From assembly GCA_021432655.1 (NCBI GenBank), contig MU271268.1:62001-112527 (forward strand): a stretch of 50,527 nucleotides of DNA, in the 5' to 3' direction. Every line of letters begins with the position of its first letter. Within the stretch, counting starts at the first letter, position 1. The position numbers were made by a program, and so were the translations under genes. The notes beneath the pieces are model-generated. The model was not told where the DNA came from. It searched no databases and saw only the letters and a program-made list of their open reading frames with translations. Below are positions 4,619 through 50,527 of the stretch, piece by piece. This DNA is from Atractiella rhizophila. Its lineage: Eukaryota.

Positions 4619-7600
4619 CTACATCTCCAGACTTTCGCCTTTCTCAAGTTGAAATCCATGGACCCTCAGTCGATAGAGGCAGGTGACGTCCTTATTGCCA
4701 TGATTGCTCATAACCTTCAGCACGACGACTCCGACGGGAATCTGCAACCTTTCGGCCAACGAGTTGGCAGGGAAGGTTTGAATGTGGTTCTTCGCATCAA
4801 CGTCGTAACTTCCCGAAGCGAGGAGAATGTGATTCGGACTCTGAGGAACAGATCCTTCTGGCTCCTCAAACTCTGTGCCATCCTCGCCTCTCGCCAGCGC
4901 TTCCGCCCTCTTCTTATTCCTCTCAATCCGATCTTGTCGCAAACGTTCCACATCTTTCTTGTCCTCAATCACACCCCAAACTTCAAAGTTTCGAGGTGCG
5001 AGGCTCATGTCGTAGTTGACCTCTTTCGCCGCATGCTCAATTGTCACATCCGTGACCACGATCCGGCGGCTGAGAAGGACACCGAGATTGCCCTTCGATC
5101 CCTTGAAGGGCCAGCATGAACCAGGGGTGAGTTGGGGAGAGAGCGCGTGGACAGGTGAGAGACCGTAGATAATGCCACGACCGGTAGCTGATGCAATGAT
5201 ACGACGGAAGAAACCTTTAGGTCGAACAGAATATATTTCGGAAGTGAGCTCGGGTATGACTCTCCCTCCTGCGGAATAGAGCGCGTAGTCTGGCCGCGCA
5301 AGGGTATCCTTGGAGTATCGAAGGAGGGCTTCGTCGATGAGGGATTCGACCAGAGAGGCGATGTCGTCTCCTGTCTTCGTTGTATACCTGCTTTTTGGAG
5401 AAGCGGAGTCCTTGATGATTTGCTGAGTCTGAACTCGTGTTTTGTCCAAAATCTCCTGTCCTAGTTTGTTGAGGTTTTCATTGAACTTTTTGTCTGAATC
5501 CGTCTTCAAAGTCTGAATCTCCCTCTTCAAGATGTCCAAGAACGTCGCTCTCGAAACTACTACACCTGACCCAACCTTCTGCTGAACGTCGGCATCGATC
5601 CAAGTCTTCAGAGACGCCTCATTTGCCACCAGGAACTCTTGCCAAGTAGGCTGACGAACAGTGACGGTCGTCGTGGTGTCGCCTCCAGCACCAGCTGGGC
5701 GTTTGGCTAATTCAAGCTCCAAAGTGGTTTTGTCTACGAATGCGTCCCGAAGATGCATCCAGAAAGCAGGATTAATGTCAAGTCTTCCAGTCTTGGGATC
5801 CATTTGGACGGCGAGGCGAGCGGGAAGCTTCGACTCGATTGCGTCGATTGCGATTTGTGCGACCTTATCTGGAGAGTGTGAAGCAACTTCCTTCTTGAGG
5901 TCTTCAAGCTTTCCTTCTAAACCACTGAAATGCCTCTGATTCGTGGACTCGTGCGCATCAACCTTAGTTGCTAGACGATCCAATCCACGTTCGAGGGTCT
6001 TTAAGCGTGCAATGTCGTCTGCGTGAGCATCATTGAGCTGCTTGATTGATCCGAGAGTGCGCGGCCATTCTCCACTGATCGTATCGACGGTTTTAGCAGT
6101 AAGTCGTAGACTAGCAATGATATCTGCCTCCTCGTCCATCCTCTTCTTCCTCTCGTTAGCCATGTCCCGCTCGAGAGCCTTGAACTTGGAATCCACTTTG
6201 ACATGTTCGGTCTCCGTTCGCCGGGAGAGATCACCAAGTGCGCGCTCGAGATGTGTTAATCGTTCGATACTCTCTGGCGGGAGGTTAGGTGGAGTGTACC
6301 CACGATGCTTTTGGAACATAGGTGGAAGCCAAACGCCAGAGCTACCAGTGTCATCGTCTCCACTTTACAACACTGTCAATTAAGCTTTGTCACAGTAGCT
6401 CAACAACTTACCTTAGAAGGGACGCAAACAAGACTAAAGAGAGCAGAGACAAGATGATGAAGGCAGACGTCCTTTCTCTGAACAATCTGACCAACCAATC
6501 CTTGATGCCGCCCAACTGACTGAAGATAGCAGATAGCACCCCGATGGTGTTCCTGATAGCGCCACCGAGAGCAACAGAGATCCGACTCGGTTCCTGTGGT
6601 TCCACCACATCCGAAGTTTCTGCAGTAGGTGGTGGGGGACGGGGAGCCTTCTGTTGTGTTGCTCGAACCTCTTCGGTCGTGACGGGTGTCACGGTCGCGA
6701 CTTTAGCAGGTCCAAACTTGCGCTTCTTGAGTTCGTTCGACTCCCTTGCCACTCGTTGAGCTTCGGCAATCTTCTTTTGTTTCGCAACCTCCGCCTTCCT
6801 CTCCATCTCTTTCACCATCCTTTCCTCCTCCGCAAAATCATAGCTGCTCGAAGCTACACCGGAGAGAGACTGTTGACTCGCGTTCGTTAGATCCCGGATA
6901 CGACCATTAGAGACGCTAGCTAGACTGGTATGGGCCTGTGGAGCTTTGATGCCTCTAAGGCTACTCGGTAGGATATTGCCCGACGAGGTAGACGTGAGGT
7001 TCTGCTGAGACAGGGATCTAGATTGCTCAGCCGAAGGCTCCACAGAGGCGGTAGTCGTAGAAGGTGAGCCAGGACGGAGGTAGAATGTGGCGGTCGAGTC
7101 CGCGTCCATCATGGTGACATCTTCCAGTTCATCCCCTTGTCCGGGAGCCCCTGACTTCCTCCTCCTTCTCCTCACGACTCTTCTCCCACTCTCATCGTAT
7201 TCCTCCGATTCTTCAGTCTCCCCAGGTACATACGCCCCATCCTTGTCCTTCGTTCGACGAGTAGTCTTGCGCTTCTTGGCTACGAAACCATGAGATAGGT
7301 ATACAAGCAACAAAAATGAGAAGATAAACGTACGTCCAATCTCCAATGACGCGTCAGGGCTCTCATCACCGATCCCGCCTAGATTCCTTCTCCCCCTTGT
7401 CAAAGCAATCCCGTCACCGCCTTCCTCATCACTTGCGGTTTCTTCCTCATCTCCAGCATTTTTCCTGCTCTTTCTTGTCTTCTTCACCACCGTGACTTGC
7501 TCCACTGTCGTCTCTCCCGGAACCCTGATGGTCCGTCTAGATCTGCTGAGAGCAATCCCTTCTCCTCCCTCTTCATCACTGCCAGTCTCCTCCTCTTCGC

Positions 7601-12978: not shown

Positions 12979-15587
12979 TTACTCGTCGTACCATAGTCGA
13001 CGCCATTCCAGTAGCATTCTATCAGATGCGTTAGAGAGCCCCGCTGATGACGAAGTGGAAGACAAACCTATAGGTATAGGCTTCCATCGACCCCTTGCTA
13101 CCTACGCTGTTGCTCCACTCCCTCCCATTCATCGCAATCTTCTTGAGACTCTCTCGATCTCCTTGATACCTCTTCTTTTTCCGCAGACGATTTAACAGCT
13201 TCCTCGACGTGGATGTACCATCCTTTTGCATTTCTTCCATCAATTTCTCCTCTTCTTGATCTGGGAGACCAAGGAAATAATTGAAGATGTTGTAGATCTC
13301 CTTGTACTCCATGGAAATGGGAATGACGTGATACCTTTTAGCAATGTCAAGGTTGGCTCTTTCGACATGAGTAAGGACTAACCAAGGGATCAAGTAATCG
13401 CTGAAGAATTCTTCATACAGCGTACTCTTCATTACTGCGCTTCCCATCTTCAACAAGCTCAAAAAACGACCTGAATACGCCTGGCCATCGATATCTAGAA
13501 GAACCTTCCACTTTGCAGACTCCGAAAAAGGCACCGTATCAGCAAAACGGTAGAGAGGGAGCAGGAGTGTGACGTTGCAAGTGTACTGGTCTCCGCAACC
13601 TTGGAGATGGGTGAAAGCAACGTCGAAAATTCGAGAATTGAGGTATTTTTGAGGGACCAGAGAATGGGTGACTCCGTTGCCAGAACGGGAGGGAGAGAAA
13701 ACATCTACATCGGTTGGATGGATTTCAGGTGAAATGTGTCGCATGAGCCGATGTCTCTGGAAGGAATGTTGATGGCGAGGCGGATTATTTCCTCCACCTA
13801 TTTCATGGTTTGAACGGAAGAAGTATGGAAGTGTAAGACATACCAGTTGTACTACCTCTCCAGAAAATCTGATCGACACGATCCTCAAATTCGACTTGCG
13901 CCATACTAGCATTGAATAGATAATGCTTGGGTGGGTTATAATACCAGTTACTGGGGAAGTTGATATCGAGAAACCCATCAAATTTTGAATGGCTGAAGAC
14001 AGGATAGAGCCCAGTAACCGTCCGCCAATCCGAGTAGAACGCTCCATGGTTTCTCCTAACTGACAGATCGTTGCATAACCCTAGACTCTTTGATCCTAAC
14101 GAGTTGGAGAATTCGAAAGCCTCTGAATGAGCAGCCTCTTCTGGAGACTTCCGAGACATCAGACTGTCAGACATGGATAGAGCCGAGCTGTCAAACTTGA
14201 TGCGAAACTCTCGTTTGTCGAGGCCATCCTCCTCCTCTTGCTTGTCCTGAGGTGACGGCTTGACGATGACTCTCCGTTTCGATTGTTTCTTTGTCAAAGC
14301 TTCTGGAGCAATAGGTTTGCGAGTCCAGGAGTCTTGAAGTGGGATGACCTGTGCCATTGTCTGCGAAAATTGCATCTCCGGTTGCTCGTTCCTCTCTAAG
14401 CCCACCAAGAGTCTTCTCGCAGCACTCCCTGGCGCACAGGCTCCGACAAACGAGTCCCATACTCCACCTCTACCCCTCCAGTCCGCGTACGGGAAAACGG
14501 AAGAAAGATTCGTAGACGGCGGCACGATTCCCTCGCTCATTCCCTGTCGATGCTTATAATCCAACAACACCCTCGGTTCAGCCAATTCGTTAATGGCGAA
14601 AGCGAGACCTTCGAAGTCCTTAAGAATTTCCTCTCCCAGATTCATCAAAACATCACGAAATCCCTTCGCTCGCTTCGTGGCTCCCAAAAGCTTCATAGTG
14701 TCTAAACTATCACGCCCCCCAGGTGTGACGAGGACGCGACCTCCAGCAGCGATCTGGACGAGAGTGAATGTGGGAAGATTCGCGATCTCGTACGTCCGCT
14801 TGCGAAGTTCAGACGCTGGTAAACCTCGGAAGACGGCCAGAGTTTCAGTAAGCGTGTCGTACAGAGCTGGGAATGGAACTTCTTTCTCTACCCGCAGCCC
14901 CGAACGTTCGTCAGTGACACAATACTTTCAAAATCATGGAGAAAACACGCAAACCCGCAATTTCCATTTCTGCGAAATGAAAAATGACGGAGAACATTGT
15001 ACCGCACGAGAAACGCCTCTTTCTGCAGATTGAGGTATTGACCACACAACCACCGGGCAAATATCATATCATGAAAATAAGGAAATCTCACCCTCAGCAA
15101 ACTTCCACCATGCTTCCCATCCTTGCGGTGGTTCATGCCAATTGCCATAGTCACTTCTCACTCCCTGACTGAGGCGGCTATACCTCTTTTTGTAATCCTC
15201 TCTGCTCCACCTCAAGTCTTTCCCCTTCCCACCCCTCTTAACTAGATCCTTCCACTTCTCCTCCGCATCTTTCATCAGCTTTGGTATTGGGTGCTCAATA
15301 TCCAATTTCGTCTCCTTTCTCTGCGAAGTTGAAGAGAAGACGCTGAGAGACGGACGGAGGTGAAGTTTTGTGAGGAGAAAATTGAGGACGATGAAAAAGA
15401 AACCAAAAAGGACCAAACGCCTAAGAAAATGGCGAGGTCTAAACCTCCTAGGCGTAAATTTTGATGGATTACCGTATCGAGACCTTGGAGGGGTGCCTGG
15501 AGGCTGGGGACGTGTAAGAGCTCGAGGCGTTGGCGGTCCCGAGCGCTGGGTCTGCGTGATGAAGGAGGAAAAGAACGACCTCGCCAT
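12979..15587 (-). CDS. Glycosyltransferase family 90 (CAP10/CXT1-like), type II membrane protein
   Basis: An N-terminal TM precedes HPIPKLMKDAEEKW, YKKRY..PPQGWEAWWKFA, INELAEPRV, FWRGSTTG, LDIDGQAYSGRF and STLYEEFFSDYLIPW. The last exon reads RMLLEWRRLWYDE* with stop at 12979-12981. Confidence 0.9.
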
Positions 15588-17234
15588 TTGGCTATTATCC
15601 CTTCACAGTTGTGCTGGAGCTGGTGTTGTGCGAACGGTGAAAATTTTGATGGTCGTTCGCAGGAAAGGAATCGAAGCTGTGGAAGCTGGCGGATGTGGAA
15701 TCAAGCAACGGGAAATGCAGAACACTGGAACTGTACGAACCTTATCGCCGCACCATCTTATCGTGTGTCGATCAAGTTCCGGATTTGTGGAACTGTCTCT
15801 GGCGACGGCTTCTGGACGAAGTCGAAATCGTCTAGAAATTGTATTTGACGTGGTAGAAGTTGTGATGTAAATTTCCTAAATATACCAACAGTCCATATCA
15901 ACCATGTTTTTAGAAAGTACCTTCTATCTTCTATGTGGGACTCCAAGGTTGACGACCCTACCACCTCTACCCCTCCAGTCCGCGTATGGGAAAACGGAAG
16001 AAAGATTCGTAGACGGCGGCACGATTCCCTCGCTCATTCCCTGTCGATGCTTATAATCCAACAACACCCTCGGTTCCGCCAATTCGTTGATGGCAAAAGC
16101 GACACCTTCGAAGTCCTTCAGGATTTCCTCTCCCAGATTCATCAAAACATCGCGGAATCCCTTCGCTCGCTTCGTGGCTCCCAAAAGCTTCATAGTGTCT
16201 AAACTATCACGCCCCCCAGGTGTGACAAGGACGCGTCCTCCAGCAGCGATTTGGACGAGAGTGAATGTGGGAAGATTCGCGATCTCATATGTCCGCTTGC
16301 GAAGTTCAGACGCTGGTAAACCTCGGAAGACGGCCAGAGTTTCAGTAAGCGTGTCGTACAGAGCTGGGAATGGAACTTCTTTCTCTACCCGCAGCCCCGA
16401 ACGTTCGTCAGTGACACAATACTTTCAAAATCATGGAGAAAACACGCAAACCCGCAATTTCCATTTCTGCGAAATGAAAAATGACGGAGAACATTGTACC
16501 GCACGAGAAACGCCTCTTTCTGCAGATTGAGGTATTGACCACACAACCACCGGGCAAATATCATATCATGAAAATAAGGAAATCTCACCCTCAGCAAACT
16601 TCCACCATGCTTCCCATCCTTGCGGTGGTTCATGCCAATTGCCATAGTCACTTCTCACTCCCTGACTGAGGCGGCTATACCTCTTTTTGTAATCCTCTCT
16701 GCTCCACCTCAAGTCTTTCCCCTTCCCACCCCTCTTAACTAGATCCTTCCACTTCTCCTCCGCATCTTTCATCAGCTTTGGTATTGGGTGCTCAATATCC
16801 AATTTCGTCTCCTTTCTCTGCGAAGTTGAAGAGAAGACGCTGAGAGACGGACGGAGGTGAAGTTTTGTGAGGAGAAAATTGAGGACGATGAAAAAGAGAC
16901 CAAAAAGGACCAAACGCCTGAGAAAATGGCGAGGTCTAAACCTCCTCGGCGTAAATTTTGATGGATTACCGTATCGAGACCTTGGAGGGGTGCCTGGAGG
17001 CTGGGGACGTGTAAGAGCTCGAGGCGTTGGCGGTCCCGAGCGCTGGGTCTGCGTGATGAAGGAGGAAAAGAACGACCTCGCCATTTGGCTATTATCCCTT
17101 CACAGTTGTGCTGGAGCTGGTGTTGTGCGAACGATGAAAATTTTGATGGTCGTTCGCAGGAAAGGAATCGAAGCTGTGGAAGCTGGCGGATGTGGAATCA
17201 AGCAACGGGAAATGCAGAACATTGGAACTGTACG
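14464..17234 (+). repeat. Direct repeat pair of ~1274 bp (14464-15737 and 15961-17234) with a 223-bp unique spacer
   Basis: Direct alignment by eye, supported by duplicated ORFs in the ORF track at a constant 1497 offset. Confidence 0.95.
15924..17084 (-). pseudogene. 3'-truncated duplicate of the GT90 gene, lacking the catalytic C-terminal half
   Basis: 15961-17234 matches 14464-15737 at offset 1497. Homology ends after ...YADWRGRGG, and the frame stops at 15924. Confidence 0.85.
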
Positions 17235-19163: not shown

Positions 19164-20165
19164 TTCGCACTAACAACCCACTCGGCGACGGAAGAGGAGG
19201 AGGATTGCTATTTCATGGCAAAATCTCCTTCTCTGATACTTCCAACAACTTCGAAACGAGACACTATCCTTCTCACCAATCCTCTCTTGTGTGGCAACAT
19301 TTCTCACACTGTCAAACCACCACACAATCTCTTAGATCCACTCCGGTCCCTTACCACCAATTCTCCCTCGACTCCAATTGCCTCTCCGCTTTCTCCTTCT
19401 ACTTCGACAACCCCTCCTCTTCTCCGAACTGTCGCAGGCCTACAAACTTCACGGCGGCATGGAGAAGAAACCCTGGTGGTGGAAGTAACTCGCTCGAGGA
19501 CGCGCGGTCTTTCTGGTGGGGGGACCCGTCAGAGCTTCAACGTTTCGATCGACCCCACTGATCTCACAACCCCTCCAATCTCTCCCTTATCAACACCCAA
19601 TCCATACCTCCTTAGCATCACCTACTCTCCTCCTATGCTCTCATTTCTCGACCACTTCTCGTCTCTTCAAAACAAAGCACCAACTTATCGACTTGATGTT
19701 TAGTTTCATACTCAGATCATATTATCCATCAGCTTCTCCTTTCGAAAATACAAGCCCAACTCTTTATAATCAATTCCTTTCCTCTTTTCGACATCACTAA
19801 CCCTTTATCAACATCACTTCAACATTTCACCTCAGTAACATCCTCCACCATTCTTCTTGTCGTTCGACTGCTCTTTCCTTCTGGACTGTGTAAAGGGGAC
19901 GGCGCGTGTATGAAGACGAACGGGGAGCTGGCGATGGGCCTAACCTGAATTCAGTAGGGTGCTCGTTGGCTAGGACTGGGGGTTGACGGAGTCGAGCCGT
20001 GAGTGCTTGACTGACCGCGAACGGCGCCCAGGGTGTTGTCTCGGGGACGTAGCGATGACGATGACTATGTTTCGGTTTTGTTTCTCTCTCTCATTCTTCA
20101 GTTTCTTATAAGATGATTCACATGTACTGAACTTGCATTTCTATGGAGTAGGCTCGCCCTCGAAG

Positions 20166-21590
20166 ATGGACCCGGTGCTCTACGAACGAATCTACAACTT
20201 CCTCTCTACTGGCTCAGTCCCTAGCCCCGCGTCGAGGAAGAACAACATCGCATTACGAAGGAAGTCGAGAAACTTCATCGTCCACAACCAAGCCCTGTGG
20301 TTCGTAGCGAAGGCGAAGGAAGGAGATGAAGATAGGCTACTGAAGTCGGTATTAAAGGCCGGAGAGCTGGAAGAGAAGGTTCGTTACATCCACGAGAAGG
20401 TCACGGCACACGGTGGGGAGAAGGCGACTCAGATTTCAGCCTCACACCTCTACTACACCGACTCCGCTCTCACCGCTACCGTCAAACGCGTCGTGCGATC
20501 TTGCGCCGCTTGCCAACGACGGCACGAATCCATGCTCCAAAAACGACCTCTCCATCCCATTTACGTTTCGCGACCTCATGAAAGGCTGGGGATAGATCTG
20601 GTCGGACCGTTCACTGAGACCGTACGTGGCAACTCATACATCATTACGGCGACGGACCACTGCACGAAGTTTGCATGGGCGGAGGCGATCCCGGATAAGA
20701 GGATGGAGACCGTAGCGGAGTGGTTAGGGAACCTGTTTATGAACGAAGGAGCGTGGGAGGTAGTGAACATGGATAATGGGAAGGAGTTCGTGAATTCGGC
20801 GGTGGAGAGTGTGTTAGAAGGGATCCAGAAGGCGAGGACAGCTCCCAATCACCCTCAGGCGAATGGCTGCGCGGAACGGTTCAATCAGACGCTCACGAAC
20901 AAGCTTACCCTTGCCTCGCAATCTACCACGACTACGGGCGAATGGGACCTCAACGTTCGTTCGGTCCGTTTTCAGTACCTTTGTTCTCATCACTCCTCCA
21001 TCGGCATGACGCCTTATCGAGCTCGTTTCGGACGCGACCCTTTCATTCCTCAACTTCCCCATCCTCCTCGCCTTTCTACGACTTCTCCTGCCATTCACTA
21101 TAACGAACTCTCAGACCTACAACGTTGGCAAGACCACCTCACGAAGACACAGCAGCTAGCAGTCGAAAGAAACCAGGAAGCACAGCGGAAGGCGAAGGTG
21201 AGAAAGGACCAAAGTATCCGGAGGAGGGTGGACGAACGCATCTTTGAGATAGGGGATAAGGTGGACGTGAGGGAGGGGACCAGTAAGAAAGCTATGGAGT
21301 ATGGTTTCGATAACATTGCAGGGGGGCACACCATCGTCAGCATTACGCGCCACCGTCTCTACGTTATCGACAAGAAGGGATCTCGTGCTCGACGAGGGGA
21401 TCAACTCCGACCTCATCATTCCCCTACTCCTTTTGCAGTTCCTCCACTTCGACCCACAGCTCCCCCTCCCCTTCCATCTCTCCCACCCATCGTCTACCCT
21501 GCGTTTGACCGGAATCCTGGAGCATTACAACCGTTCCTGGAGGAGTGGAATGTCGAGAAGAAAGAAGCGGAGATGGAAGATAGGGTATGA
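20166..21590 (+). mobile_element. Gypsy-type DDE integrase as a stand-alone open ORF (Ginger/GIN-like candidate)
   Basis: H2C2 zinc finger (HEKVTAH...CAAC), rve core LGIDLVGP / MDNGKEF / HPQANGCAERFNQTL, then HSSIGMTPY..RFGR and FEIGDKV. Confidence 0.88.
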
Positions 21591-22330: not shown

Positions 22331-24012
22331 TAGGGAGAGTTTAGACTTGGAGTAAGGTCATTGATAGAGGGCTTACGAAGAAGTCGCCTATGAAAACCGT
22401 GGGAGAGGGCATCGTGACGCAGAACTTTGCATTCCAATTGGAGCACAAGTTGGTTGCTTCCAAATCTTCCTGTCACTTCTTACACCCAGCCTTCGTTCTG
22501 TGCAGCGTTGTCTGATGCTGAATACTTGCCTGCAACGGCAGCAGCCAGCGTTCGTGGAGAGGGTTCGAGTTACGAGGGCATTGGGCAGTTGTTTGGGTAG
22601 AGGGGAAAGTAAAAGCTGCGACGCTCAGCAGCTTTGTGGACTGTCTTTCGCAGCACCAATTTGAGATCTGCTGAGATTTCGAAAAGGGAACAAGAGATTG
22701 AGCCGCTGAGTAATTAGCCCGTACTGCGAGACAGCTCTCCCTCGTTTGCACGAGTATTCACACGCTCTTGAATGGTCGATAGGCAAGAAGACCTCAACAA
22801 CACCCGCATGCGACAACTTATCATGGTGGATAGGCTGACGATCATCAAACATCCTGCTAAAAGTGCTCATTAGGAGTCCTCGAACGCTCGACAACTACGT
22901 TTCAGGAGCTGTTATCAACCTTGAAGTGACTAAAAGCGACTAAATAATAAAGAACAATGTTAATATAACCTGACTCTTTCAGGACTCGAAATTCAGCAAC
23001 AAAGCAATTGGGAAATTCAAAGTTCTTGATACCTGTTCAGTAAATTACGGGAAACAGCGCGAAGGATAAGCGAATTAGAGTAATAGTGAGAATGTTTGGC
23101 GGTTCTTGACGCTGAAACAACCCTGAATGACCGTGGGTCGGGTCAGGCTGCTGGGCGATATCATTTTTGTTTGAGGAGCGGTCGGAAAAAAGATTTACAT
23201 TTGAAATTGAGAAACTGCCCAGTCAGTCCACGACATCTCAGATTTCTTAAATTGAGTAGATTTGACATAAAGGCACTGTAACCACAGCCAGTAGTGAAGA
23301 GCATCCTTAAAAGATCCAACTTATTTTGGCGACTTGAAGCGCCGATCACGGTGAGTAACCTCATCCTTGATCGAAGGCGAAGATTCGGGAGAGTGGTTTG
23401 GTGCAGAGGACTGCACCTGCAGATTTGTATTCAAAGTTGGACACAACCAGTTTCATTCAATTGGTCCAAGCGCCAAAGATTCCTTCTGTATTGCTGTCGT
23501 AAACATTAGCTCTGACTGTGTACAAAAACCGGCAGCTTTCGAAAACTGTGTGCTACGTTGTGCGACTATAGAAGCTTTACAGAGCTTACATTTACATTTT
23601 CACAACATATTGATTTGATCAGCTTGGAGAAGATTGCGTGTCTTTGTAGGTCCAATTCGTTGATGGTAACATGACATTTGCTCTGAAGTTGTGCCGTTGT
23701 CTGAGTTGCTCAGTTTTAGCATCAACACTTACCTAGTTTGTTTAGTTTGGTTTCCGAGATTGGTCGTGAGATGCAAGCAGAACACTGATTTCGGCTGAGG
23801 CGATAGCAAGCCTGTTATCCAAACTTGTCAAAAGGTTTGGATTCTTTACATGTTGTTCATTGCAAGAGGCGAACAATGATGAGATAAAAAGAGCTAGTTC
23901 TCTGGGAGGTATGAAAAATACTATCTGGACTATAGCCTGTCATAAAAATAGGGAATGGAAGGAATACTAACAGTTCGCTGTTTTAGACTTCAATCTGTGC
24001 GCATCTGATACA

Positions 24013-27000
24013 ATGTCTCTAACTGAAGAAGAGCGTCTGTCTCGTCTCGTACCATCCCTCCTCTCTTCGCCGACGCTTACGCTCCCAACCGATTATCCGC
24101 GACCACCACGAGGACACGAACGCTCCATTGAAGCGTTACAGTCTTTTACCTTCTCCCCTCGCTTGTTATCCTCCCTCATCCGTCTATCATACCATCAAGA
24201 AGAGGATGAAGAAGATGCCTCACCACCAACCGTCTTTCAACTTGTCCTCGCTGGCCTTCTGGTTCTCCTTGCTCGTTACACCGCCGAGAGTGAAATCGTT
24301 GTCGCGACTAGTTCACCCATTGCGAGGGATCCCTTACTTGTCAAGGTCGGCTTGGAGCCAGGAGACGGGTTTTGGAACCTTGTGAGGCGGGTTGTATGGC
24401 AGGAAAAGGAAGCGGAGGAGCTCAATGTGCCTTTTGAGATGATTGAAGAGGCAGTGAAGAAAGCCAGAGGAGAGGAAGGGGACACAGAACCGTTGTTTCG
24501 TGTGAGGTTTTTGGATGAGATGGATCGAGGACCAAGCATGCCGTTCCTTTCTTCGACATCACTAACTACAGATCTTGTCTTCTCTCTCTCTTCGTCATCG
24601 CCGCCTTCAACCCCTCCTTCTCAGATGTCGACGCACGCGCTGCCTTCCCTCCCACCCACCACACTGACGATCACCTATAATTCCCTCCTTTTCTCCCCAC
24701 GACGCATTCAACACATCTTTTCTCAGCTCGAATGTCTCCTCACTAAGACGTCGCACAACCCTGATCTCGAAATTTTCAAGATTCCAATCCACGAGCCGGT
24801 TTTCTCATCCCCTGCCGAATGGAAAGAGCTACAGGGCCAAACTCAAGCGGGAGAAGTGATTCCCAATCCTCGCGCCAATTTGCATTGGACATCTTGGCCA
24901 GGCCCTATAACTCATATCTTTGCTCGTCATGCTGAAACATCACCGGAGCGGTTATGTGTAGTAGAAGAGAGAGACGATGAGCAGAGACGGTTCTCCTATG
25001 CTCAAATCCATCGAGCAGCATTGAGAGTCGCGAAGGTGTTGTTGAAGAATGGTTTGAAAAGAGAGGAGGTAGTCACTATTTTCAGTACGAGAGGCGTCGA
25101 ACTACTGGTGGCTGTTGTGGGGACCTTGATGGCAGGAGGCACTTTCAGTGTCATTGGTGTGCCATGCCATAATTTTGAGAATAAAAGCGCTAACGCCACG
25201 CTAACCCAGATCCGGCATATCCACCCACTAGACAGCAAATATACCTCTCAGTCGCCCGTCCGAAGGCTCTAATCACCCTCTCTCGTGCTGGTACATTACC
25301 ACCATCAGTGCGCCAGTACGTCGCTGAACAGCTCTCATTACGAATTGAAATTCCTTCTTTGGAGCTCCTTTCTTCTGGTTCCTTAAGCATTCCTCCCAAC
25401 CTTGATGCGGATGATCTCGAGATTCCAGCGAGTGGTGTGGGGCTAGGTCCAGATAGCATTGGGACGCTCAGTTTCACGAGCGGGAGTACTGGAATCCCAA
25501 AAGGAGTGAGAGGCAGGCATTATTCTCTCACTCACTTCTTCAGTTGGATGAGCGAGCGATTCGTGATGGGAGAGAACGAGAGGTTTACGATGCTCAGTGG
25601 AATTGCCCATGATCCGATTCAGAGAGATAGTGCGCTTTTTCCTTCCCTCACCCAGTGGTCATAGGTTCTGACGCTATGACAGTGTTCACACCTCTCTTCC
25701 TCGGCGCAAGCCTTTGGATTCCCACCGCTGAGGACATTGGAACTCCCGGTAGATTGGCCCAATGGATGGCCGATAAGGAGGTGACAGTTACTCACCTCAC
25801 CCCAGGTCAGCAAATACCTTCAACGTTTTGTTTCAGGATTAGGGCTTACCAGCTCTCTAGCTATGGGACAGTTACTCTCAGCACAAGCGAAAACTCAAAT
25901 TCCTTCTTTACGGAATGCTTTCTTTGTAGGAGACATCCTTACGAAGCGAGACTGCACGCGTCTGCAGCAGTTAGCGTCCAACTGTCAGATCATCAACATG
26001 TTTGGAACCACGGAAACTCAACGAGCCGTCTCGTATTTTCCCATCCCTCCTCTGTCTGTCGATCCTACCTTCCTCAAGACGAGAAAAGACATTGTTCCTG
26101 CCGGAAGCGGAATGGTTGACGTCCAGCTTCTTGTCGTCAATCGGCAGGACAAGACACAACTTTGTGCGGTTGGAGAAATTGGCGAGATTTACGTTCGTAG
26201 CGGTGGTCTTGCCGAGGGATATCTCGACCTGGAAGAGGATAACAGGGTTAAATTTGTCGAGAACTGGTTCGCGAGCTCAAATCTCGGGAAGAGAAAGAGG
26301 AAGGGTTCTCCAGAGCAGGATGTTGTTGAGTGGGAGGATACTCTGCATGGTGCAGAACACTGGAAAGGAGTTAGAGACCGGATGTACCGCTCTGGGGACT
26401 TGGGTCGGTATCTCCCGAACGGTGTCGTAGAGTGCACAGGGAGAGCGGACGATCAAATCAAGATTCGAGGCTTCCGAATCGAGTTAGGAGAGATCGATAC
26501 GCACCTCAGCCGACATCCTTTGGTGCGAGAGAACGTCACGCTAGTCCGAAGGGACAAATACGAGGAAAAAGTGCTAGTGAGCTACTTTGTTCCATTAGGA
26601 GGAGAAGAGACGGACAAAATGGTGAGTGAGAGCGAAGGAGAAGTCGAGAGGAAGCAGGGGAAAGAGGAGGAGGCAATGAGGGGTCTGAGGCGCTACAGGA
26701 AACTAATCAAAGATATGAGGGAGTACCTCAAGACCAAGCTGCCAAGTTACAGCATTCCATCTGGTTCGTCCATCTTTTCTGCCAAGTCGTCATTTACTGA
26801 AGGGATTTCAGTTTTTGTTCCTCTTTCACGCATGCCGCTCAACCCGAACGGCAAGATTGACAAGCCTGCACTTCCATTTCCAGATACAATTCCAGACATT
26901 GTCCCTTCCACTTCGAAGACTGGAAAGGACGTGAAGCGCACCGCAACAGAAGCGGCACTGGAGTCAATCTGGACTCGAATTCTGACAAACATCCCCTCTC

Positions 27001-28602
27001 CTGTTCCACTCGACGAATCCTTCTTCGATTTGGGTGGTCATTCCATCCTAGCTACTCGAATGATATTCGAAATCCGGAAGGCATTTTCGCCAGATGCACC
27101 CCTGGGTCTCATCTTTGAGTACCCAACCTTAAGAAGCATGGCGAGACAGATCGATGAGCTCCGAAATCAGGACATGGGTTTTGTTGAGGAGGAGAGCAAA
27201 GACGCAGCTGCAAAGGTCTCAACAGATGTTAGCTCACGCCAATACGCCGAAGACGAGGTCCAGCTACTGAAGAAGCTCAAGCCGTCTTACGATCCTCCAC
27301 TCTACCATTCGGATGGCAAGCGCGTCATTTTTCTTACCGGAGCCACAGGGTTTCTGGGCTCGTTTATTCTTAAAGATTTGTTGCAGCGGGATAACGTCGC
27401 CAAGGTTATCTGTCTCGTTCGAGCTAAGGATGATGCAACAGCCAGGTCGCGTCTGAAGGAGAACTCGGAGGGACGAGGTGTATGGAATGAGAGTTGGGTC
27501 GAGCAAGGGCGGCTCGAGGTCGTAGCTGGAAATCTGGAAACTGACAAGTTTGGATTGGACAAGCGGTCTTACGAGCAGTTGGCTAAGGATGTAGATGTTA
27601 TTGTGCATAACGGGGCCTTGGTATAGAATCCTCCATCGTCCATAGTCGCTGCTCCTTAACGTCTCTTTTGGTGGACAGGTGCACTGGGTCTATCCGTATT
27701 CCAAGCTGCGCTCTGCCAACGTCCTTTCTACCCTGGCAATCATCGACTTCGCCTCCGCCGGTCGTCCCAAGGCTCTCTCCTTCGTCTCATCCACAGCCTC
27801 TATCGAGAATTCACACTACCTCCATCTCTCCGACTCCGTCCTTCAAAAGGGAGGCTCAGGTATTTCCGAAGGGGACAATCTTGACGGAGCGCGCGCTGGG
27901 CTCAAAGTCGGTTACGGACAGACGAAGTGGGTTTCTGAGCGTCTCATCATGGAAGCCGGTCGTCGAGGTTTACGAGGAGGAATTGTTCGGCCGTCCTACG
28001 TCGTTGGAGACTCACTCACGGCGGTAACCAATACCGACGACTTTCTCTGGCGACTCGTCAAAGGCTGTTTACAAATCGGACTCGTGCCTGACATCAATAA
28101 TGCCATCAACATGGTCCCGGTGGATCACGTCGCACGCATAATCTCCCTCTCTGCAATCCAAGCCCCCGCCGACAGGCTGCCTGTTTACCACGTTACGGCA
28201 AAGCCGACGATCAGGTTCAACGACTTCCTTTCCGTCCTACCGACTTATGGCTACCCCGTCGAAAGGTTGGAGTACCTGCAATGGCGGACTAAGCTGGAGC
28301 AGCATGTCCTGTCCTCGCAAGACAACGCGCTCTTCCCTCTCCTCCATTTCGTTCTTGACGACTTGCCCTCGAATACGAAGGCAGCGGCTTTGGATGATAG
28401 GAATACCGTCGGATTGTTGCGAGGGGGGAAGGAGACGGAGGAGATGACGGTCTCTCAGGATCTCAACGGATTGTATCTCGCTTGGCTCGTCAAGACCGGT
28501 TTCTTGGAGAGTCCTCCGTTGGCTGGAAAGGAGGGAAAGAAGTTGCCCACGCTTGAAAATGTGGGAGAAAAGGTTAAGGCTTTGGGGAGGAGCGGAAAGT
28601 AG
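24013..28602 (+). CDS. LYS2: L-2-aminoadipate reductase (A-T-R domains)
   Basis: A domain ([66 protein letters not shown]), T domain (FFDLGGHSI) and reductase ([17 protein letters not shown]). Five short introns lie near 25157, 25631, 25806, 26764 and 27622. Confidence 0.97.
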
Positions 28603-29083
28603 GTCTCAAACGTTAGTGTGTCGTACAATAGAACCACAAAATTGTATACAAAGAATGCCTTTAGAAGACTACTTCCTGTGACCTCGCATTTATGTGGTGA
28701 GCATGAACGAAATTAATTGCCTGCGATCGTGTTTCTTTGCAGTACTGAGACAAATTGATTCGACGGACACAAGAAGCTTTGTTTTATTTTCCCAATGGTC
28801 CATAGTCCTTGGAGGAAACCTGAGGAAAGGGCCTTGCCCAAGCTTGAATGAAGAAAACACCCAAATCCCAAATGGTTACTGAATTGATCACTAAACAACG
28901 ACCCCTTTCATCGCCCAGCCAGTGACTTAACAAAAATGGACCTTCAGATCTACTGAAAAAGGAACCACTGTCAAACGAGAAAAGTTGATTGAGCCTGTCT
29001 GCGCAGACAACACAGCATTAGGCGTCACAGTTTCTCAATTCGAATTCGAAGAGGGGAGCTTACCAACTTTGAGAACAAAGTGT

Positions 29084-29822
29084 TCAATCCTTCAACCACG
29101 CCTTCCCCATCCCCCAGTTACAGTTTGTCCCTTCCGTGCAACCCGCCGCACCACCGTTCCCATCCGTCGTCGTCGTCGTCGTCCGAGTTGGATTTGCTAT
29201 CAGATGAAGAGGAGTTGGGGTTGAGCAAGGAGTCGAGGACCGAAGAGCGCTTCATCGTCCTGATCCAACCACGGTACATCTGACGCCACCAATTGCAGTT
29301 CGTGTCTTGAGCGCAGACAGCATCTCCATCGTCTCCACTTTCCGTAGTCGAACTAGTGGAAGGAGGGTTTGCGTTTGCGGAGGAGGAGGAGGAAGTGGTG
29401 GTGGTAGTGGTGGGAGAAGAACTGGAGGAAGGTTTCGGGTTCACGAGTTGGTCGAGGAGAGATCGTTTCCAACCTCTGTACAATGGACGCCACCAGTTGC
29501 AGTTCGTGCCTTCGGCGCATTCGCCTTCATCTTGACCAGTCGCATCCGCCGTTGACGAGGAAGAGGAGGGAGGAGCGCTGGAGCGCTTGACGGCCCATCC
29601 TTTGTACATCAGTCCCCCCCAGTTGCAATTCGTCCCTTCAGCGCATGCTGTCGTTTCAACGTCGCGTTTAACTGTTCCATGTGTCCGTCAACGTTACATT
29701 TGATGAACGAAGGAGAAAGAAAGGAGCTTACTTGCTATATTGCTAGGATTCGAGTTCAGAGTGGCGAGTGGCAGGGAAGCGGCCAGGTGGATCAGGAGAA
29801 GGAGGACAAAGAGTTTCAACAT
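29084..29822 (-). CDS. Secreted KEX2-type repeat precursor with four C-x5-CNW peptide cores; repeat 4 lies beyond a 1-nt frameshift (as written the frame stops at 29118)
   Basis: ATG 29822 starts MLKLFVLLLLIHLAASLPL (signal-peptide-like). A 60-nt intron spans 29731-29672 (gtaagc...gaacag). KR-delimited repeats follow: CAEGTNCNWGGLMYKGWAV, CAEGTNCNWWRPLYRGW, CAQDTNCNWWRQMYRGWIRTM and, in the shifted frame, CTEGTNCNWGMGKAWLKD*. Confidence 0.85.
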
Positions 29823-30578
29823 CTTGAGGGAGTCGAACTTAAAGGAAGAAAGGCCGAGCGATTTAGAAAAAGAAAAGAAAGAAAGTGCGAATAACCAAAT
29901 GGGAGATCGACAGCTATTACCCAGTCCAAAGCCTTAGAGCTTTTATAGAGAGGTCGTTAGAGCAGCCGGTTCAAACGGGAACTTGAGTGTGAGAAAGGCA
30001 AGTGATAACGAGAACCTGGTGAGTGAAGCACCGATGTCCCTGGGAAAACAGCCTGAGAACGAGGACGGGAAGGGAACAAACATCTTCGGATCGAGAAACA
30101 GAAGACTGGAGCTTCGAACTTCTGGCCAGTGTGGGCATTGATCGCCAGTGGTATTCCTAGATGCTGCAACGCGTGTGAGCTTGACAGCAGGAAGATTCGA
30201 AAGCCAGAGCTTGCTTGGAAGAGCTTTCCATTGGCCCTTTGAGGCGTTTTAGTGGCGCTCAATTCACTATTGGTGACGTCGGGGCAAATGACTCCCATTT
30301 GTCGGGATCAGAATAACCGTCGCACAACAATAAAATATTTATTTTCGACGTCTGTCTTCGTTTCTCCATTCAACTCCATCCTTTCTTTTACTTTTACTGC
30401 CCCTTTGAGATGAGTCGTCTGCTTAGCACCTTCAAAGTTAATCTTCAAAGTTAATTGGCGCGGATGCTATCGATCAAGAACTGCCCCTCCTCTTTATGCG
30501 CTATGTGAAGAAGTTGAAGAACCTTTAGGGGAGACGAGAGGCGTTCAAGTTGTAGGAGGTCAACTAGTAGTACTAGAG

Positions 30579-31364: not shown

Positions 31365-32366
31365 TCAGGCGTATTCGCTCAGCGTCTTCCTCATCTCCCT
31401 TGCCGGTATCAAAGTTGCCAACTTGGGCTGGACAAAGAGAGCCCTTTCCCACCCAACAAACGCATTCAACATCCCTTCCTTTTCAACGAACAAACGAAAA
31501 GAGAAGACTCACTTGGCCTCGACAAGCGTTTCACCCTCCAAACTCTCCAGGGTACTCTTAGCATAAGCCTTCCTTCCCTCCTTCCTCTCCAACTTTGACC
31601 GTATCAAATACCACCCGTCCGCTTTCACCATCTTCCTGTAATCGACCTCCAACCTAGCCGTGACCCCAACCTTTGCGTCCAAAGCCTCGCACGCCACCCT
31701 CGCCGTCGCTTCATCCATCAAAGTGGCGGCGAGGCCACCGTGGACGAGCCCATCGTGGCCACACACGCTCCGTCCCAAGTGGAGAACGATCACGAGCTCG
31801 GTGCGGTCGGGGGTGAAGAAGAGGAGTGGGACGGGAGTTATGCGTCCCGGGCCGAAGAGAGCGGTCGCGGTAAGGGAGTGTTGCCTCTTTTCCGGTGGGA
31901 GGTTTCGGTATGGACGGGAGAGGAAATATTTCTTCACTGCTCCGGAGGGAAGGACGTAACGGTCGTCGAGCGTTTGCCAGTCTGGATTCCACCCTGTGGC
32001 GGGAATGGGATGTTCCCATACCTCCTCTTGCAGCTTCTTGACGACGTCGAGATCCCACAACTCCTTCTCCCTGCTCTCTAGCAGTGCCTTCCACTCCGCA
32101 CTCTCCGGCTCAGGCGCCGGACCTAGTACTGCGCTCGGCGGAGGAGAGAGGAGGGATAGGAAGGAAGGGGGATAGTACAGCGCTGTGCCATAGCTGCCCA
32201 ATGCGACAGCTGCGAATCCAAGGGCTAGACCAATTCGCGATGCTGGTGCTGGTGAGCGAGGCGGAGGCGGTGAGTTGGAGGTGGATTGGAACCGCCGTGG
32301 AGCGTGATTGGGACGGCGCAGGAGGCCATAGAGGCTGGCAGAGGGTCTAGTGCTTGGTGGCTTCAT
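31365..32366 (-). CDS. Hotdog-fold thioesterase (PaaI/THEM4/FMP10-like), probably mitochondrial
   Basis: HLGRSVCGHDGLVHGGLAATLMDE and GVTARLEVDYRK, with an Arg/Ser-rich presequence plus TM. The second exon reads (K)ALFVQPKLATLIPAREMRKTLSEYA* with stop at 31365-31367. Confidence 0.88.
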
Positions 32367-33170
32367 AACTTCCCGATAAATTTCGTCCCTCAGTCCCTAA
32401 CCCTACTGGCAAGAAAGCTTGAAGCTTGCATCGCGACGTCAACCCAGGAGAACTGAGGTGAACTTAACGCAGAAATTACGAGAGTAGAGACGGGCTGAAA
32501 GGGTCATAAAGAGAGGAGGCACATTATCTTTATTAGCTTTACAGGCAACTTCAATTGTGAGTATTTCGCGTTGGGAATGAGTTCTGGCTGGGCAGCTTAT
32601 CCACCTGTGTTCCTGAGAGTTCCCTGAAGTCACAAATGGATTTTGAGCACTTGTCTATGCTGATTCTGCTGAGAACTGCTGGGTGACGATGATACGAATG
32701 TACTCCGAGGGTTGGGAGAGGAGATTTATCACCTCAGTCTCGGCATGACTGCTTGAGCTGGAGTTACGACTGTATGGCTGTCAAACTCGAGATAGCTCAT
32801 TGCGTCCTTTAATGTCTCTCTCGATACTTTCAGCTGCTCAGTGCAGATTCATGTCACTTTCGAAGAGGCTATCGTTGGAGTTGAGAATGACTTGCATGGT
32901 TTCCGGCAGTTCCTTCTAGTGATTAGGGGAAACTAAGTGAAGTAACGCTGGGATAACGTACCTTTTGATCGGAGGTTGATAGACGACTATTCCAAGTCGT
33001 AGAATTAGGCGAAGCAGCAAGTCTGAAACTTACAGTTGGGTTCTTGCACTACTCTGTAACTGCCAGAACCAAACAAGCTTAATCATTCTTACGTTCCTAA
33101 GAATATAATGCTGATTAGATTATTCGAGACAGGCAGGGTCCAGTGGACTCACATTTCTTCCTCTATATCG

Positions 33171-34916
33171 ATGACTATCAACCTCCTCTCCGCCATCCCT
33201 TTCTCTCTCCTCTACATTCTCCTCTCCGCCTTACCAGCGCGATCGCAGGATGTTACATCCATCGCTCTCAATCCACCACAGGTTTTCTCATTCAACACAT
33301 CCGCCTCCCCATCCACCGCCTTTTTCTCTCTCCCACCATCTTCCTCCCAAACCTTCATCTCCCTATCCCTCTGTTCCGCCTCCGCCCCTCCCGGTCGTCG
33401 AACGACTCTCTACCTCTCCAACTCGACCTCTGTCCAGTTCCCGACCTCCGATTCCCACCTCCCACCCGCCCAAAGCATCCGAATAAATGATGGAGCAGCC
33501 TCTTTTCGCTTCGACAAATCGGACGACGGCATCTTCATCGGCGTTACGACTACGGATGCTGGAGAATGGGAACTGGGTGTCTCAGGCGAAGACGCCGGCT
33601 TCTTCCACGATGTCCAGCCTCCGGTGTTCATATGGGAGGACAGCGATTCAACCCACTCCCTCCTCCGTCGAGCGACGAATTTCACATCTGACACTCCACC
33701 GCAGGACGACATGCTCCGACCTCTCGTCTTGAAGACTGGTGTCGTACCTGACTTCTTGAGCGGGAGCGTGTGTGCAGTCAGACGAGCGAATGTCGCTACT
33801 AGTGGAGGACAGGGAGAGGGCAATTGGACCATGTTCGTTGGTGCGGGGAATCGGACGGTCTTGGGGGCGGGAAGGAGGGTAGAGTGGTTTGGGGACCAGT
33901 TGCAGGGTGGGACGAATTATACGTTTTGGGAGTTTGAACAAACTGGCACCGATGGAAGTGCGATATTGAGCGGACCGAGCTATTTCGTCACTAAACAAAG
34001 TGAGTTTGTTCAGGGTTTTCAAACTCTTTGAGATGTTGAAGGATGGTTAACAGGTTCCAATTGCTTCCTCCCACCTCCAAATCATCCCCTTCTCGAGATC
34101 TGCCCATCTCTCACATATTCCATTCCCGCTCCCTCAAACCTCCCAACTGGAGTAACCCTCGAATCCTTCTTCGTTCCCATCCTCCAAAAGTCCCTCACCA
34201 ACTTCAACCTAACCCTCTCCACCTTCCCCTGCAACAACCGTTCCATATCCGAAGGCACCTACTCCTTCATCTCCACCTGCTCCGACTGTTTCGCCGCCTA
34301 CCGACTCTGGCTATGCTCCATCGTTCTTCCTCGCTGCACCGATCTCCCAGGGTCCTTCTCCCCGCCATTCAATTCCTCCGGATTCATACCCAACGACACA
34401 CTCAGTGTTTTCCCACGAACCGACCCTCCCTCCTCTCGTACGCCTTTCTTCGCTCCCGACGCCCTCCCACAAGGAGCCACATCCCCATTTCCCTACGGGG
34501 AAATCCTTCCATGTGACGCAAATTGTCAGCGAGTCGGAGCGACGTGTCCTCCGTTTATGGGATGGCAGTGTCCGCTGAAAGACGTGACGAGAGAAGCGGG
34601 GTACGCTCCATTTCAGAAGGTGTTCAGCTTGGAGGCAGACGGGACGAAGGGAGTGGAGGAAGGTGTGAGAGGACCTGAAGGACTGGGTGAGAGGGGGAGC
34701 GACAGGTGGGGAAACGTCTTGTGAGTTCCCTGTCTCTTTCTCTTTTGTTTTTTTGCGTTGGACATTCCCACTCATGTTCCAACTCGTGATAGCTGTAATG
34801 CGGTCGGATCAGACATTATCCTAGCGATGCAGATTGGCGCGGCGGCACGGACATTGGTGCCATCATTTCTCGTCCTCCTGGTGTCCCTGGCAGTGGGGGC
34901 CCTCTACGATCTCTAA
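33171..34916 (+). CDS. MID1: Mid1-like Ca2+ channel regulatory subunit (partner of Cch1)
   Basis: Signal peptide, FISLSLC, EDSDSTHSLL, SVCAV and LQGGTNYT. The Cys-rich exon 2 has CPSLTYSIP, TFPC, YSFISTCSDCFAAYRLWLCSIVLPRC and YGEILPCDANCQRVGATCPPFMGWQCP. The last exon starts CN and ends in a hydrophobic tail. Confidence 0.88.
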
Positions 34917-49241: not shown

Positions 49242-49775
49242 AGCGCGTACACTGATGAGCGTGCTTTTTCAAGGCACCAACCGTGAGTGGATCTCGGTGA
49301 TATGCGTCACTCTCATCGGTATTGTGAAAGAGAGATATGTCGCTCTAATTGGGGGATCTACGCGGTACTCGCTAATAATGGGAATGGGCGAGATCATCCC
49401 TCCAATTGATTGTCATTACTGTCGATGCATCAATGCATTTCAGCTCATATCTGCTGTGAAGCTGCTTCGGGTAGGATCACACCCTCATCTTTCTTCCCAG
49501 TACCCAAACCAGGCCTAAAAGGTGTCGTATTGTCAGATAGAAGAGACGAACCCATAAATATTACAAATCAGTTCTGGGCTACATAGCTATTCCTTCACTC
49601 TTCCTTCCTTGCAATCACCTCCAAGTTGCAATCAGGACCTTGCAGTAAACTCTACAGCTCCTCACTCTCAGGCTGAATTGTGACAGCGGCCTGCTAAGCT
49701 AAGAGATGCAGATGAGTACCGCTTCTTTTACGCGTATCTCCTCCCGCGATCGAAAGGAAAAAAGTACTTCACCAG

Positions 49776-50527
49776 ATGAGGACCTCTCGCTTCGCTCCGC
49801 ACGTCGAGAACTCCGCGACGCTCCTGCTGCCCGCCTCCAGCAGCGGCAAGCCACTCGTCTTCCTCAACCCCGTGCAAGAGTACAACCGGGACCTCTCCGT
49901 CGCCTGTCTCACCACTTACCGTCACATAAGGCAGAGGGAGCTCCAGAAGTCCACTAAGAGGGACGACTTTTGTTGGAGACCTTATGTCCTCGACGCGCTC
50001 TCTGCTAGCGGGCTGAGGGCCATCAGGTATGCGAGGGAGATCAAGGAGTGTAGGTTGGTGGTCGCCAACGATCTGTCGAGGGAGGCAATGGAGGTCATCG
50101 AGCGAAATATCTCGCACAATCGCGTCGCTAATCCAAATGACAATGGAAATGGCGATACAATCGCAGAAGGGGCGGAGGGAGAAGAAAAGAAGAAGGCGTT
50201 TTATTCGCCTCAAGAGCGACCAGCCTACGTCGTGCCCTCTCTCTCAGACGCCCTCGTCCTCCTCTCCCTCTCCAGAATCAAACCCAGTCCCTCCTCCTCA
50301 TTCCCTTACACCGGTCCTACATCCGGAAAAGCCTTCGATGCCATCGACCTCGATCCCTACGGCACCTGCGCACCTTTCGTCGACGCAGCGGTGCAGAATG
50401 TCGCTGATGAAGGGCTCCTGATGGTCACCGCAACAGATATGGCTGTTGCAGCGAGCACAAATCATCACGAGAAATGCTATGGGAACTACGGGGGTTTGCC
50501 AACGAGGAAGGAGTGGTGTCACGAAGC
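49776..50527 (+). CDS. TRM1: tRNA (guanine26-N2,N2)-dimethyltransferase, 5' part; runs off the window
   Basis: Open frame from ATG 49776: VFLNPVQEYNRDLS, VLDALSASGLRAIRYARE, VVANDLS, FDAIDLDPYGTCAPFVDAAV, GLLMVTATDMAV. It is absent from the ORF track because there is no stop inside the window. Confidence 0.93.
   Translation, partial: MRTSRFAPHVENSATLLLPASSSGKPLVFLNPVQEYNRDLSVACLTTYRHIRQRELQKSTKRDDFCWRPYVLDALSASGLRAIRYAREIKECRLVVANDLSREAMEVIERNISHNRVANPNDNGNGDTIAEGAEGEEKKKAFYSPQERPAYVVPSLSDALVLLSLSRIKPSPSSSFPYTGPTSGKAFDAIDLDPYGTCAPFVDAAVQNVADEGLLMVTATDMAVAASTNHHEKCYGNYGGLPTRKEWCHE

Follow-up and report, generated by a model that had tools for sequence, protein, structure and literature searches.

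A candidate lineage-restricted KEX2-processed repeat protein with C-x5-C-N-W units in the root endophyte Atractiella rhizophila

Introduction

In the basidiomycete Ustilago maydis the secreted protein Rep1 is cut at Lys-Arg (KR) sites into many related peptides that are hydrophobic and bound to the wall, and the precursors of the dikaritins (ustiloxin, asperipin and phomopsin), which are of the KEX2-processed repeat protein (KEP) type, carry KR-flanked repeated cores that are much shorter than those described here. Operational criteria for KEPs were given by Le Marquer et al. 2019 (PMC6339444), namely a signal peptide, no transmembrane segment, cleavage at KR or RR into four or more fragments that are each two or more residues long, and repeated motifs; a subsequent catalogue contains 838 types of KEP, of which most occur in one genus only (Umemura 2020, PMC7329392). 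The processing model adopted here is that of Saccharomyces cerevisiae MF(alpha)1, in which the signal peptide, pro-region and repeats with KR sites are handled by Kex2 and Kex1 (PMC6339444). Two-Cys alpha pheromones of Sordariomycetes, Leotiomycetes and some Dothideomycetes, as well as a KEP of Trichosporon oleaginosus, have two nearby Cys residues with a Trp beside the second (PMC6339444). Very few KEP peptides have a known structure or function despite the large number of KEPs, and mass spectrometry has detected KEP-derived peptides in other basidiomycetes; the basidiomycete knockouts reported in the same source, a study of KEPs in Agaricomycetes, gave no phenotype in pure culture, and a role in biotic interactions was suggested (Vogt et al. 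2022, PMC9769878).

Here we describe a gene located within a 50,527-nucleotide window – the whole stretch of DNA analysed – of Atractiella rhizophila. This fungus is a Populus root endophyte, a basidiomycete that belongs to the early-diverging lineage Pucciniomycotina. The predicted product resembles KEPs in its signal-peptide-like N-terminus, its short pro-region, its three or more near-identical motifs separated by KR and its restriction to one genus (PMC6339444, PMC7329392, PMC9769878). It differs from the catalogued KEPs in a core that matches no catalogued repeat, in coming from a genus absent from the supplements of both catalogues, in variable Ser/Thr-rich linkers of 21-48 amino acids that contain no second cleavage site, and in the Cys pair within each core. 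Unlike MF(alpha)1, it comes from a basidiomycete, has neither a match to MF_alpha nor EA or DA spacers for STE13, and would give rise to Cys-containing peptides. The likeness to the two-Cys alpha pheromones and the Trichosporon KEP is one of pattern only, as the spacing and flanks are different and no relationship is detectable, whereas the dikaritins differ in that no DUF3328/UstYa gene lies near the A. rhizophila locus. The units are polar and acidic, in contrast to Rep1, similarity to which did not surface in any of our searches. We consider it probable, with odds of roughly two in three, that the gene encodes a lineage-restricted KEP of A. rhizophila.

Results and Discussion

Gene model and repeat units

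The feature of interest (29084-29822) extends from the stop codon of the fourth repeat unit to the A of the ATG of a minus-strand gene, the parts of which are listed with the neighbouring genes in Table 1. Among 5.8 billion protein clusters searched there was a single match, 99% identical, to hypothetical protein BT69DRAFT_1348629 [Atractiella rhizophila] of 214 aa, and the deposited sequence is identical to the splice model derived here. Public sequencing runs were compared with the window over positions 28900-30000, and one of them, X8, includes the window's own haplotype, with three contigs showing 0 differences. The gene is transcribed and both of its introns are spliced. An X8 contig joins 29671 to 29732 (with a side of 70 nt), depth is zero in the bin 29677-29713 inside intron 1, and because this contig spans the spliced intron, run X8 includes cDNA. 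The original prediction of a single intron holds for the 60-nt intron within the coding region, but a second intron is present in the 3' UTR. We note that the intron-1-bridging contig extends upstream of the ATG by 283 nt or more (29823-30105, minus strand), a candidate leader in which one upstream ATG (30083) opens a uORF of 46 codons.

Exon 2 begins with I-K-R and continues through three units in one frame to a TAA stop codon. When the 50.5-kb window is translated in six frames, the pattern C.{5}CNW is met four times, always between 29114 and 29645 and within 560 bases, compared with 0.048 occurrences expected from residue frequencies and a mean of 0.045 (maximum 2) in 200 shuffles. A DNA repeat finder identifies the same four copies (family D1), which are 62-72% identical to the reference copy. 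The four units have the sequences first reported for them, and their alignment agrees with the claim of an invariant C....NCNW and distal Trp, since the first Cys, T-N-C-N-W and the distal W are the same in all four. The description of four units each preceded by KR does not survive closer reading, however: only unit 1 follows a KR directly (with six intervening residues), and units 2, 3 and 4 follow KR plus linkers of 21, 48 and about 35 residues, with no dibasic site at the border of linker and core.

Table 1. Positions of the peptide gene, its repeat units and the neighbouring genes in the 50,527-nt window.
Feature	Position	Strand	Basis or remark
Start codon ATG	29820..29822	-	First Met of deposited protein
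Exon 1, 91 nt: signal-peptide-like N-terminus and start of short pro-region	29732..29822	-	Hydropathy; -3/-1 rule by eye
Intron 1, 60 nt, GTAAGC...CAG	29672..29731	-	Spliced X8 contig and depth
KR site 1, end of pro-region, residues 32-33	29664..29669	-	Translation
Unit 1: DVETTA, core CAEGTNCNW (29645-29619), tail GGLMYKGWAV, KR (29588-29583)	29583..29663	-
Unit 2: 21-residue Ser/Thr/acidic linker, core CAEGTNCNW (29519-29493), tail WRPLYRGW, KR (29468-29463)	29463..29582	-
Unit 3: 48-residue Ser/Thr-rich linker, core CAQDTNCNW (29315-29289), tail WRQMYRGWIRTM, KR (29252-29247)	29247..29462	-
(GAC)6 run, site of the frame difference	29166..29183	-	Window one base longer than second X8 haplotype and X2
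Unit 4: core CTEGTNCNW (to 29087 with its tail), tail GMGKAWLKD, stop TGA (29086-29084)	29084..29140	-	Out of frame in window; in frame in other X8 haplotype and X2
Stop codon TAA of window allele (three-unit protein, 214 aa)	29118..29120	-
Intron 2, 65 nt, GTAAGC...GCAG, in 3' UTR	28999..29063	-	X2 joint and matching X8 loose ends
LYS2, L-aminoadipate-semialdehyde dehydrogenase, A-T-R architecture	23971-28599	+	Downstream, convergent with peptide gene
4HBT thioesterase-fold ORF	31512-32396		Upstream of peptide gene
Mid1 channel component	33060-34721	+	Upstream of peptide gene
Retrotransposon remnant: ORF carrying integrase zinc-binding and rve core domains	20112-21587	+
TRM1 tRNA methyltransferase	49716-50525	+
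Sad1/UNC domain protein	4622-6364	-
ABC-class ATPase N-terminal domain	1317-1835	-

Two expressed haplotypes that differ in the number of units

In the window, unit 4 lies in a different reading frame from units 1-3, and the annotated protein therefore carries three units; a precursor with all four, as initially proposed, is not encoded by this allele, in which the frame of units 1-3 ends at the TAA. The difference resides in the (GAC)6 run, across which run X8 has two contigs of near-equal depth, 95.1 and 94.8 (total 189.9). The first is identical to the window, and the other (X8-alt) has one base absent at 29179 along with six substitutions. Run X2, from a relative showing 16 differences over 327 bases (~95% identity), has one base absent at 29180. 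With the listed differences applied by script, the frame of unit 3 in both X8-alt and X2 continues across a Thr-rich linker to unit 4 and its stop codon, giving a precursor of about 225 aa, and because both read unit 4 in frame the four-unit form is probably ancestral. The window carries a genuine, expressed frameshift allele, and two haplotypes are expressed. Assembly error was ruled out as a cause of the frameshift by a 138-nt X8 contig that matches the window exactly across the site, and a coding intron restoring the frame of unit 4 was rejected, the sole GT..AG pair seen by eye being 44 nt long and in the wrong frame.

The existence of two X8 forms points to either a heterozygous (dikaryotic or diploid) strain or a collapsed recent duplicate; alleles are favoured over paralogues because clustering at 90% identity leaves one member only, on one contig, and it is an assumption that the remaining X8 contigs belong together as one haplotype. 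The window allele has seven Cys residues, the odd one in its frameshifted tail, and since this allele has lost unit 4 and gained a seventh Cys, the unit count appears not to be strictly constrained.

Several further observations concern these alleles. Between 29107 and 29631 the two X8 forms differ by ~4% (six differences and one indel in 138 nt; five differences in 124 nt). A second relative, X1, has a loose end that by eye is also one base shorter across (GAC)6, although the contig ends there and this is a hint only. Intron 2 begins 20 nt past the unit-4 stop and 54 nt past that of the frameshift allele, so that the two stop codons lie at these distances upstream of an exon junction, yet the depths of the haplotype contigs are similar.

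Predicted processing of the precursor

The precursor begins with M-L-K, a hydrophobic stretch (mean Kyte-Doolittle value of 2.99 over an 11-residue window) and A-A-S, and by hydropathy and the -3/-1 rule applied by eye this N-terminus is signal-peptide-like, as had been claimed for it. The 19-residue Kyte-Doolittle mean peaks at 2.36 (residue 4) and rises no higher than -0.05 beyond residue 20; the N-terminus is the only hydrophobic segment, and by this measure the protein is otherwise free of transmembrane segments. No hydrophobic C-terminus of the GPI-anchor type is seen in the precursor by hydropathy. Although there are 9 Lys and 11 Arg in the protein, these form four dibasic pairs only, all of which are KR, located at residues 32, 59, 99 and 171; the first closes the pro-region, and each of the others immediately follows the tail of unit 1, 2 or 3. 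Cleavage at these sites in silico yields five fragments; the window allele has three repeats in frame, and the other X8 haplotype and X2 have four. The combination of a signal-like N-terminus, five KR-bounded fragments and at least three repeats separated by KR agrees with the KEP architecture put forward in the original prediction and with the operational criteria of Le Marquer et al. 2019 (PMC6339444).

The unit fragments, minus their KR, are 25, 38 and 70 residues long, and each has two Cys, two or three Trp and a pI of 4.1-4.5. Counted from the first Cys, the peptides of units 1-3 are 19, 17 and 21 residues long with charges of -0.3, +0.7 and +1.7. The proposal of an aromatic and cationic tail is therefore correct in part, in that units 2 and 3 are cationic from the first Cys onwards, but the full Kex2/Kex1 products would be acidic and would have Ser/Thr-rich extensions, and this acidity makes a cationic antimicrobial peptide of the classical type less probable. 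The residues that follow the four KR sites are DV, SS, SL and SS, and at none of these sites is there a STE13 dipeptide (XA or XP). The precursor sequence contains no site at which the acidic Ser/Thr-rich linkers could be cut from the cores. As far as the translation indicates, then, units 2-4 are without a site between linker and core, unlike classical KEPs, which have KR on both sides of the core, and this counts against the KEP reading, as do the lack of STE13 dipeptides and the acidity of the complete fragments.

If the KEP reading is correct, the predicted signal peptide would direct the precursor into the ER, where the two Cys residues of each unit would most likely close a seven-residue disulfide ring and the Ser/Thr-rich linkers would probably be O-mannosylated. 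In the Golgi, Kex2 would cut after each of the four KR sites and Kex1 would take off the C-terminal KR; unit 1 would give a peptide of 25 residues and units 2-4 would give longer ones, such that three or four related peptides may be secreted. Each would consist of the ring and a Trp/Tyr-rich tail (N-W-x3-Y-[KR]-G-W), and those of units 2-4 would keep an acidic N-terminal linker unless trimmed by another protease.

A different view of the same protein is that it is a secreted Ser/Thr-rich glycoprotein or a wall-associated protein of the 'repellent' type, in which the disulfide loops are structural and the product, either uncleaved or as Kex2 fragments retained on the wall like the Rep1 peptides of Ustilago, stays at the hyphal surface rather than diffusing. 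Such a protein would account for the content of Ser and Thr, which make up 25% of the residues and as many as 26 of 70 in one fragment, as well as for fragments that are long and acidic. It would also fit the low-confidence structures: the ESM Atlas model has a pLDDT of 0.47, and an AF2 model of one unit (from a four-row alignment) has a mean pLDDT of 58.4 with a helix at residues 15-27, a weak prediction. Nonetheless we regard it as unlikely, as KR pairs are found at unit borders and nowhere else (4/4), the protein lacks a hydrophobic C-terminus suited to a GPI anchor, and the linkers are the least conserved part of the protein, tolerating a deletion of 18 codons, whereas the short cores are conserved.

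Genomic neighbourhood

The original prediction also raised the possibility that the gene encodes the precursor of a ribosomally synthesized and modified peptide (RiPP). On such a reading the cores would be cross-linked or otherwise modified, either as in the dikaritins or by a new Cys/Trp/Tyr chemistry. The precursor does have the architecture of ustiloxin-type precursors (PMC7329392), and Cys, Trp and Tyr are abundant in its cores. Against this, matches in Pfam to DUF3328/UstYa, tyrosinase, P450, methyltransferase or peptidase families are lacking among 38 long ORFs window-wide, and the same tailoring families are absent from the 63 ORFs of at least 60 aa between 21.3 and 37 kb, a scan that is local in scope and through which exon-split genes may slip. 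The flanking genes are LYS2, the 4HBT-fold gene and Mid1. Three exon ORFs of LYS2, which is split over at least three, match TIGR03443 across profile positions 7-1381 of 1390 (213.7, 802.1 and 415.5 bits), and although this gene is mistakable for an NRPS-like one, its profile match identifies it as a housekeeping gene and not a secondary-metabolite NRPS. With no tailoring gene found nearby, the RiPP claim has no local footing, and a RiPP precursor would have to depend on tailoring enzymes encoded elsewhere, which we think distinctly improbable.

Among the other genes of Table 1, Mid1, TRM1, the Sad1/UNC domain protein and the ABC-class ATPase are ordinary housekeeping neighbours. Elsewhere in the window there is a tandem duplication of ~1.5 kb. 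The direct repeats 14464-14763 and 15961-16260 are 96% identical over 300 nt at a spacing of 1497 nt, and pairs of ORFs of 177 and 141 aa are present at 15072/16569 and 15278/16775, none with a Pfam match.

Conservation of cores and variation of linkers

Comparison of the four cores with one another (six pairs of nine codons) gives a pS of 0.74 and a pN of 0.074. With synonymous sites close to saturation and the amino acids kept, the repeats must be old and the peptide sequence constrained. Between the window and the other X8 contigs, X1 and X2, 33 of 36 differences are listed, and few sites stand behind the evidence for selection. In the cores, tails and KR sites, five of the six listed differences are synonymous, and the remaining one replaces the unit-4 Thr with the consensus Ala; among linker differences outside the indel, 6/17 are synonymous. 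Of the remainder, three belong to the indel and seven to exon 1 (five synonymous). The synonymous share of listed differences in core and linker gives a Fisher p of 0.07, which is suggestive only of tighter constraint on the cores in this comparison of haplotypes and relatives.

The linkers were described at the outset as variable, Ser/Thr-rich and acidic, and their lengths of 21-48 residues, together with the toleration of an 18-codon deletion, bear this out. X2 is without these 18 codons of the unit-3 linker (29403-29456), which include S-L-L-D-Q-L-V-N-P, a stretch that looks repeated after two KR sites and that is presumably dispensable because it is deleted in X2. In the two variant forms, X8-alt and X2, all KR sites and all cores are kept (with the unit-4 change to Ala as the one listed amino-acid difference); loss of KR sites in homologues, which had been named as grounds for abandoning the KEP interpretation, is therefore not seen as far as close relatives go. 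Cores, tails and KR sites therefore appear conserved and the linkers variable.

These patterns bear on a further alternative, that of a young orphan gene that is decaying or has no selected function, being transcribed into a dispensable product. Homologues were not found outside the close relatives, and one expressed allele has a frameshift that removes unit 4, both of which could be expected of such a gene. However, the near-saturation of synonymous sites between repeats that retain their amino acids, the maintenance of cores and KR sites across three haplotypes or lineages, and coverage of the gene at ~95% identity in the relative X2 and by one contig of a soil metatranscriptome run (X3) all argue the other way, and we judge decay to be very improbable.

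Searches for relatives of the core peptide

A four-unit profile searched with HMMER against 1.84 billion representative proteins recovered only the protein itself (E 3.5e-53, three stretches), with the proviso that a distant relative with a single unit would score below detection. Word-based searches for proteins of near, shorter and longer lengths returned the protein itself or nothing at E values up to 10. When JGI metagenome contigs were searched with the unit profile there were 65 pattern matches, 0 of which were confirmed by tblastn, and a profile search of the PDB gave 0 matches at E up to 10. Pfam matches at E up to 10 are low-complexity noise only (New_glue, 14.4 bits; DUF3446, 8.4 bits). 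Matches in the ESM Atlas are leads only, the feature matches (≤0.81) falling below the 0.9 bar and the structure matches having TM values of ≤0.29. The terms 'Atractiella' and 'NCNW' are absent from the supplements of the two KEP catalogues, comprising four files of PMC6339444 and three of PMC7329392 (strain and KEP tables included), and in the literature searched we found no publication combining Atractiella with Kex2, or with secretome and effector.

Consistent with the original view that the core is not recognisable from any described family, there is no detectable relative in the sequence libraries or in the supplements of the two catalogues, and the recommended profile and catalogue checks found no homologue beyond the other X8 haplotype and the close relatives X1 and X2. 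Within the libraries and catalogues searched, the core peptide sequence thus appears undescribed. Because most of the 838 KEP types are restricted to a single genus, a new genus-restricted type is to be expected and is not surprising.

An alpha-factor-type mating pheromone precursor with two-Cys peptides like those of Sordariomycetes can hardly be what is encoded here: the architecture is shared, two conserved Cys followed by Trp recall the Trichosporon oleaginosus KEP (PMC6339444) and the nearest Atlas feature clusters, both under the bar, are 'Pheromone 1' (0.81) and MF_alpha (0.77), but the precursor matches neither MF_alpha nor MF_alpha_N in Pfam, has no STE13 signature, differs in motif spacing and flanks (C-x5-C-N-W here), and comes from a basidiomycete, a group described as having a-type pheromones only (PMC6339444).

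Conclusions

Our preferred reading remains that of a lineage-restricted KEP, the released peptides of which would have an extracellular part in biotic interactions, signalling to or affecting plant roots or other microbes. An extracellular role towards plants or microbes is the most likely one, and is favoured because of the analogy with other basidiomycete KEPs. More tentatively, and we would call this a possibility rather than an expectation, the gene may represent a family restricted to Atractiellomycetes, encoding disulfide-ringed, Trp/Tyr-rich peptides (C-x5-C-N-W...Y-[KR]-G-W) that serve as diffusible signals or weapons towards the host plant or competing microbes, with the number of units varying between alleles through frameshifts in a trinucleotide run.

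The peptide gene opens no new class of system, as its architecture is ordinary in fungi; it is the peptide sequence that is new so far. What it would add is a KEP from a plant-root endophyte of the Pucciniomycotina, in a genus that lies outside both large KEP surveys. Because the cores are clearly constrained in sequence and Cys-paired, they are well-defined candidates for synthesis and bioassay, and the natural pair of expressed alleles, one with three units and one with four, constitutes a small ready-made experiment on the evolution of repeat number.
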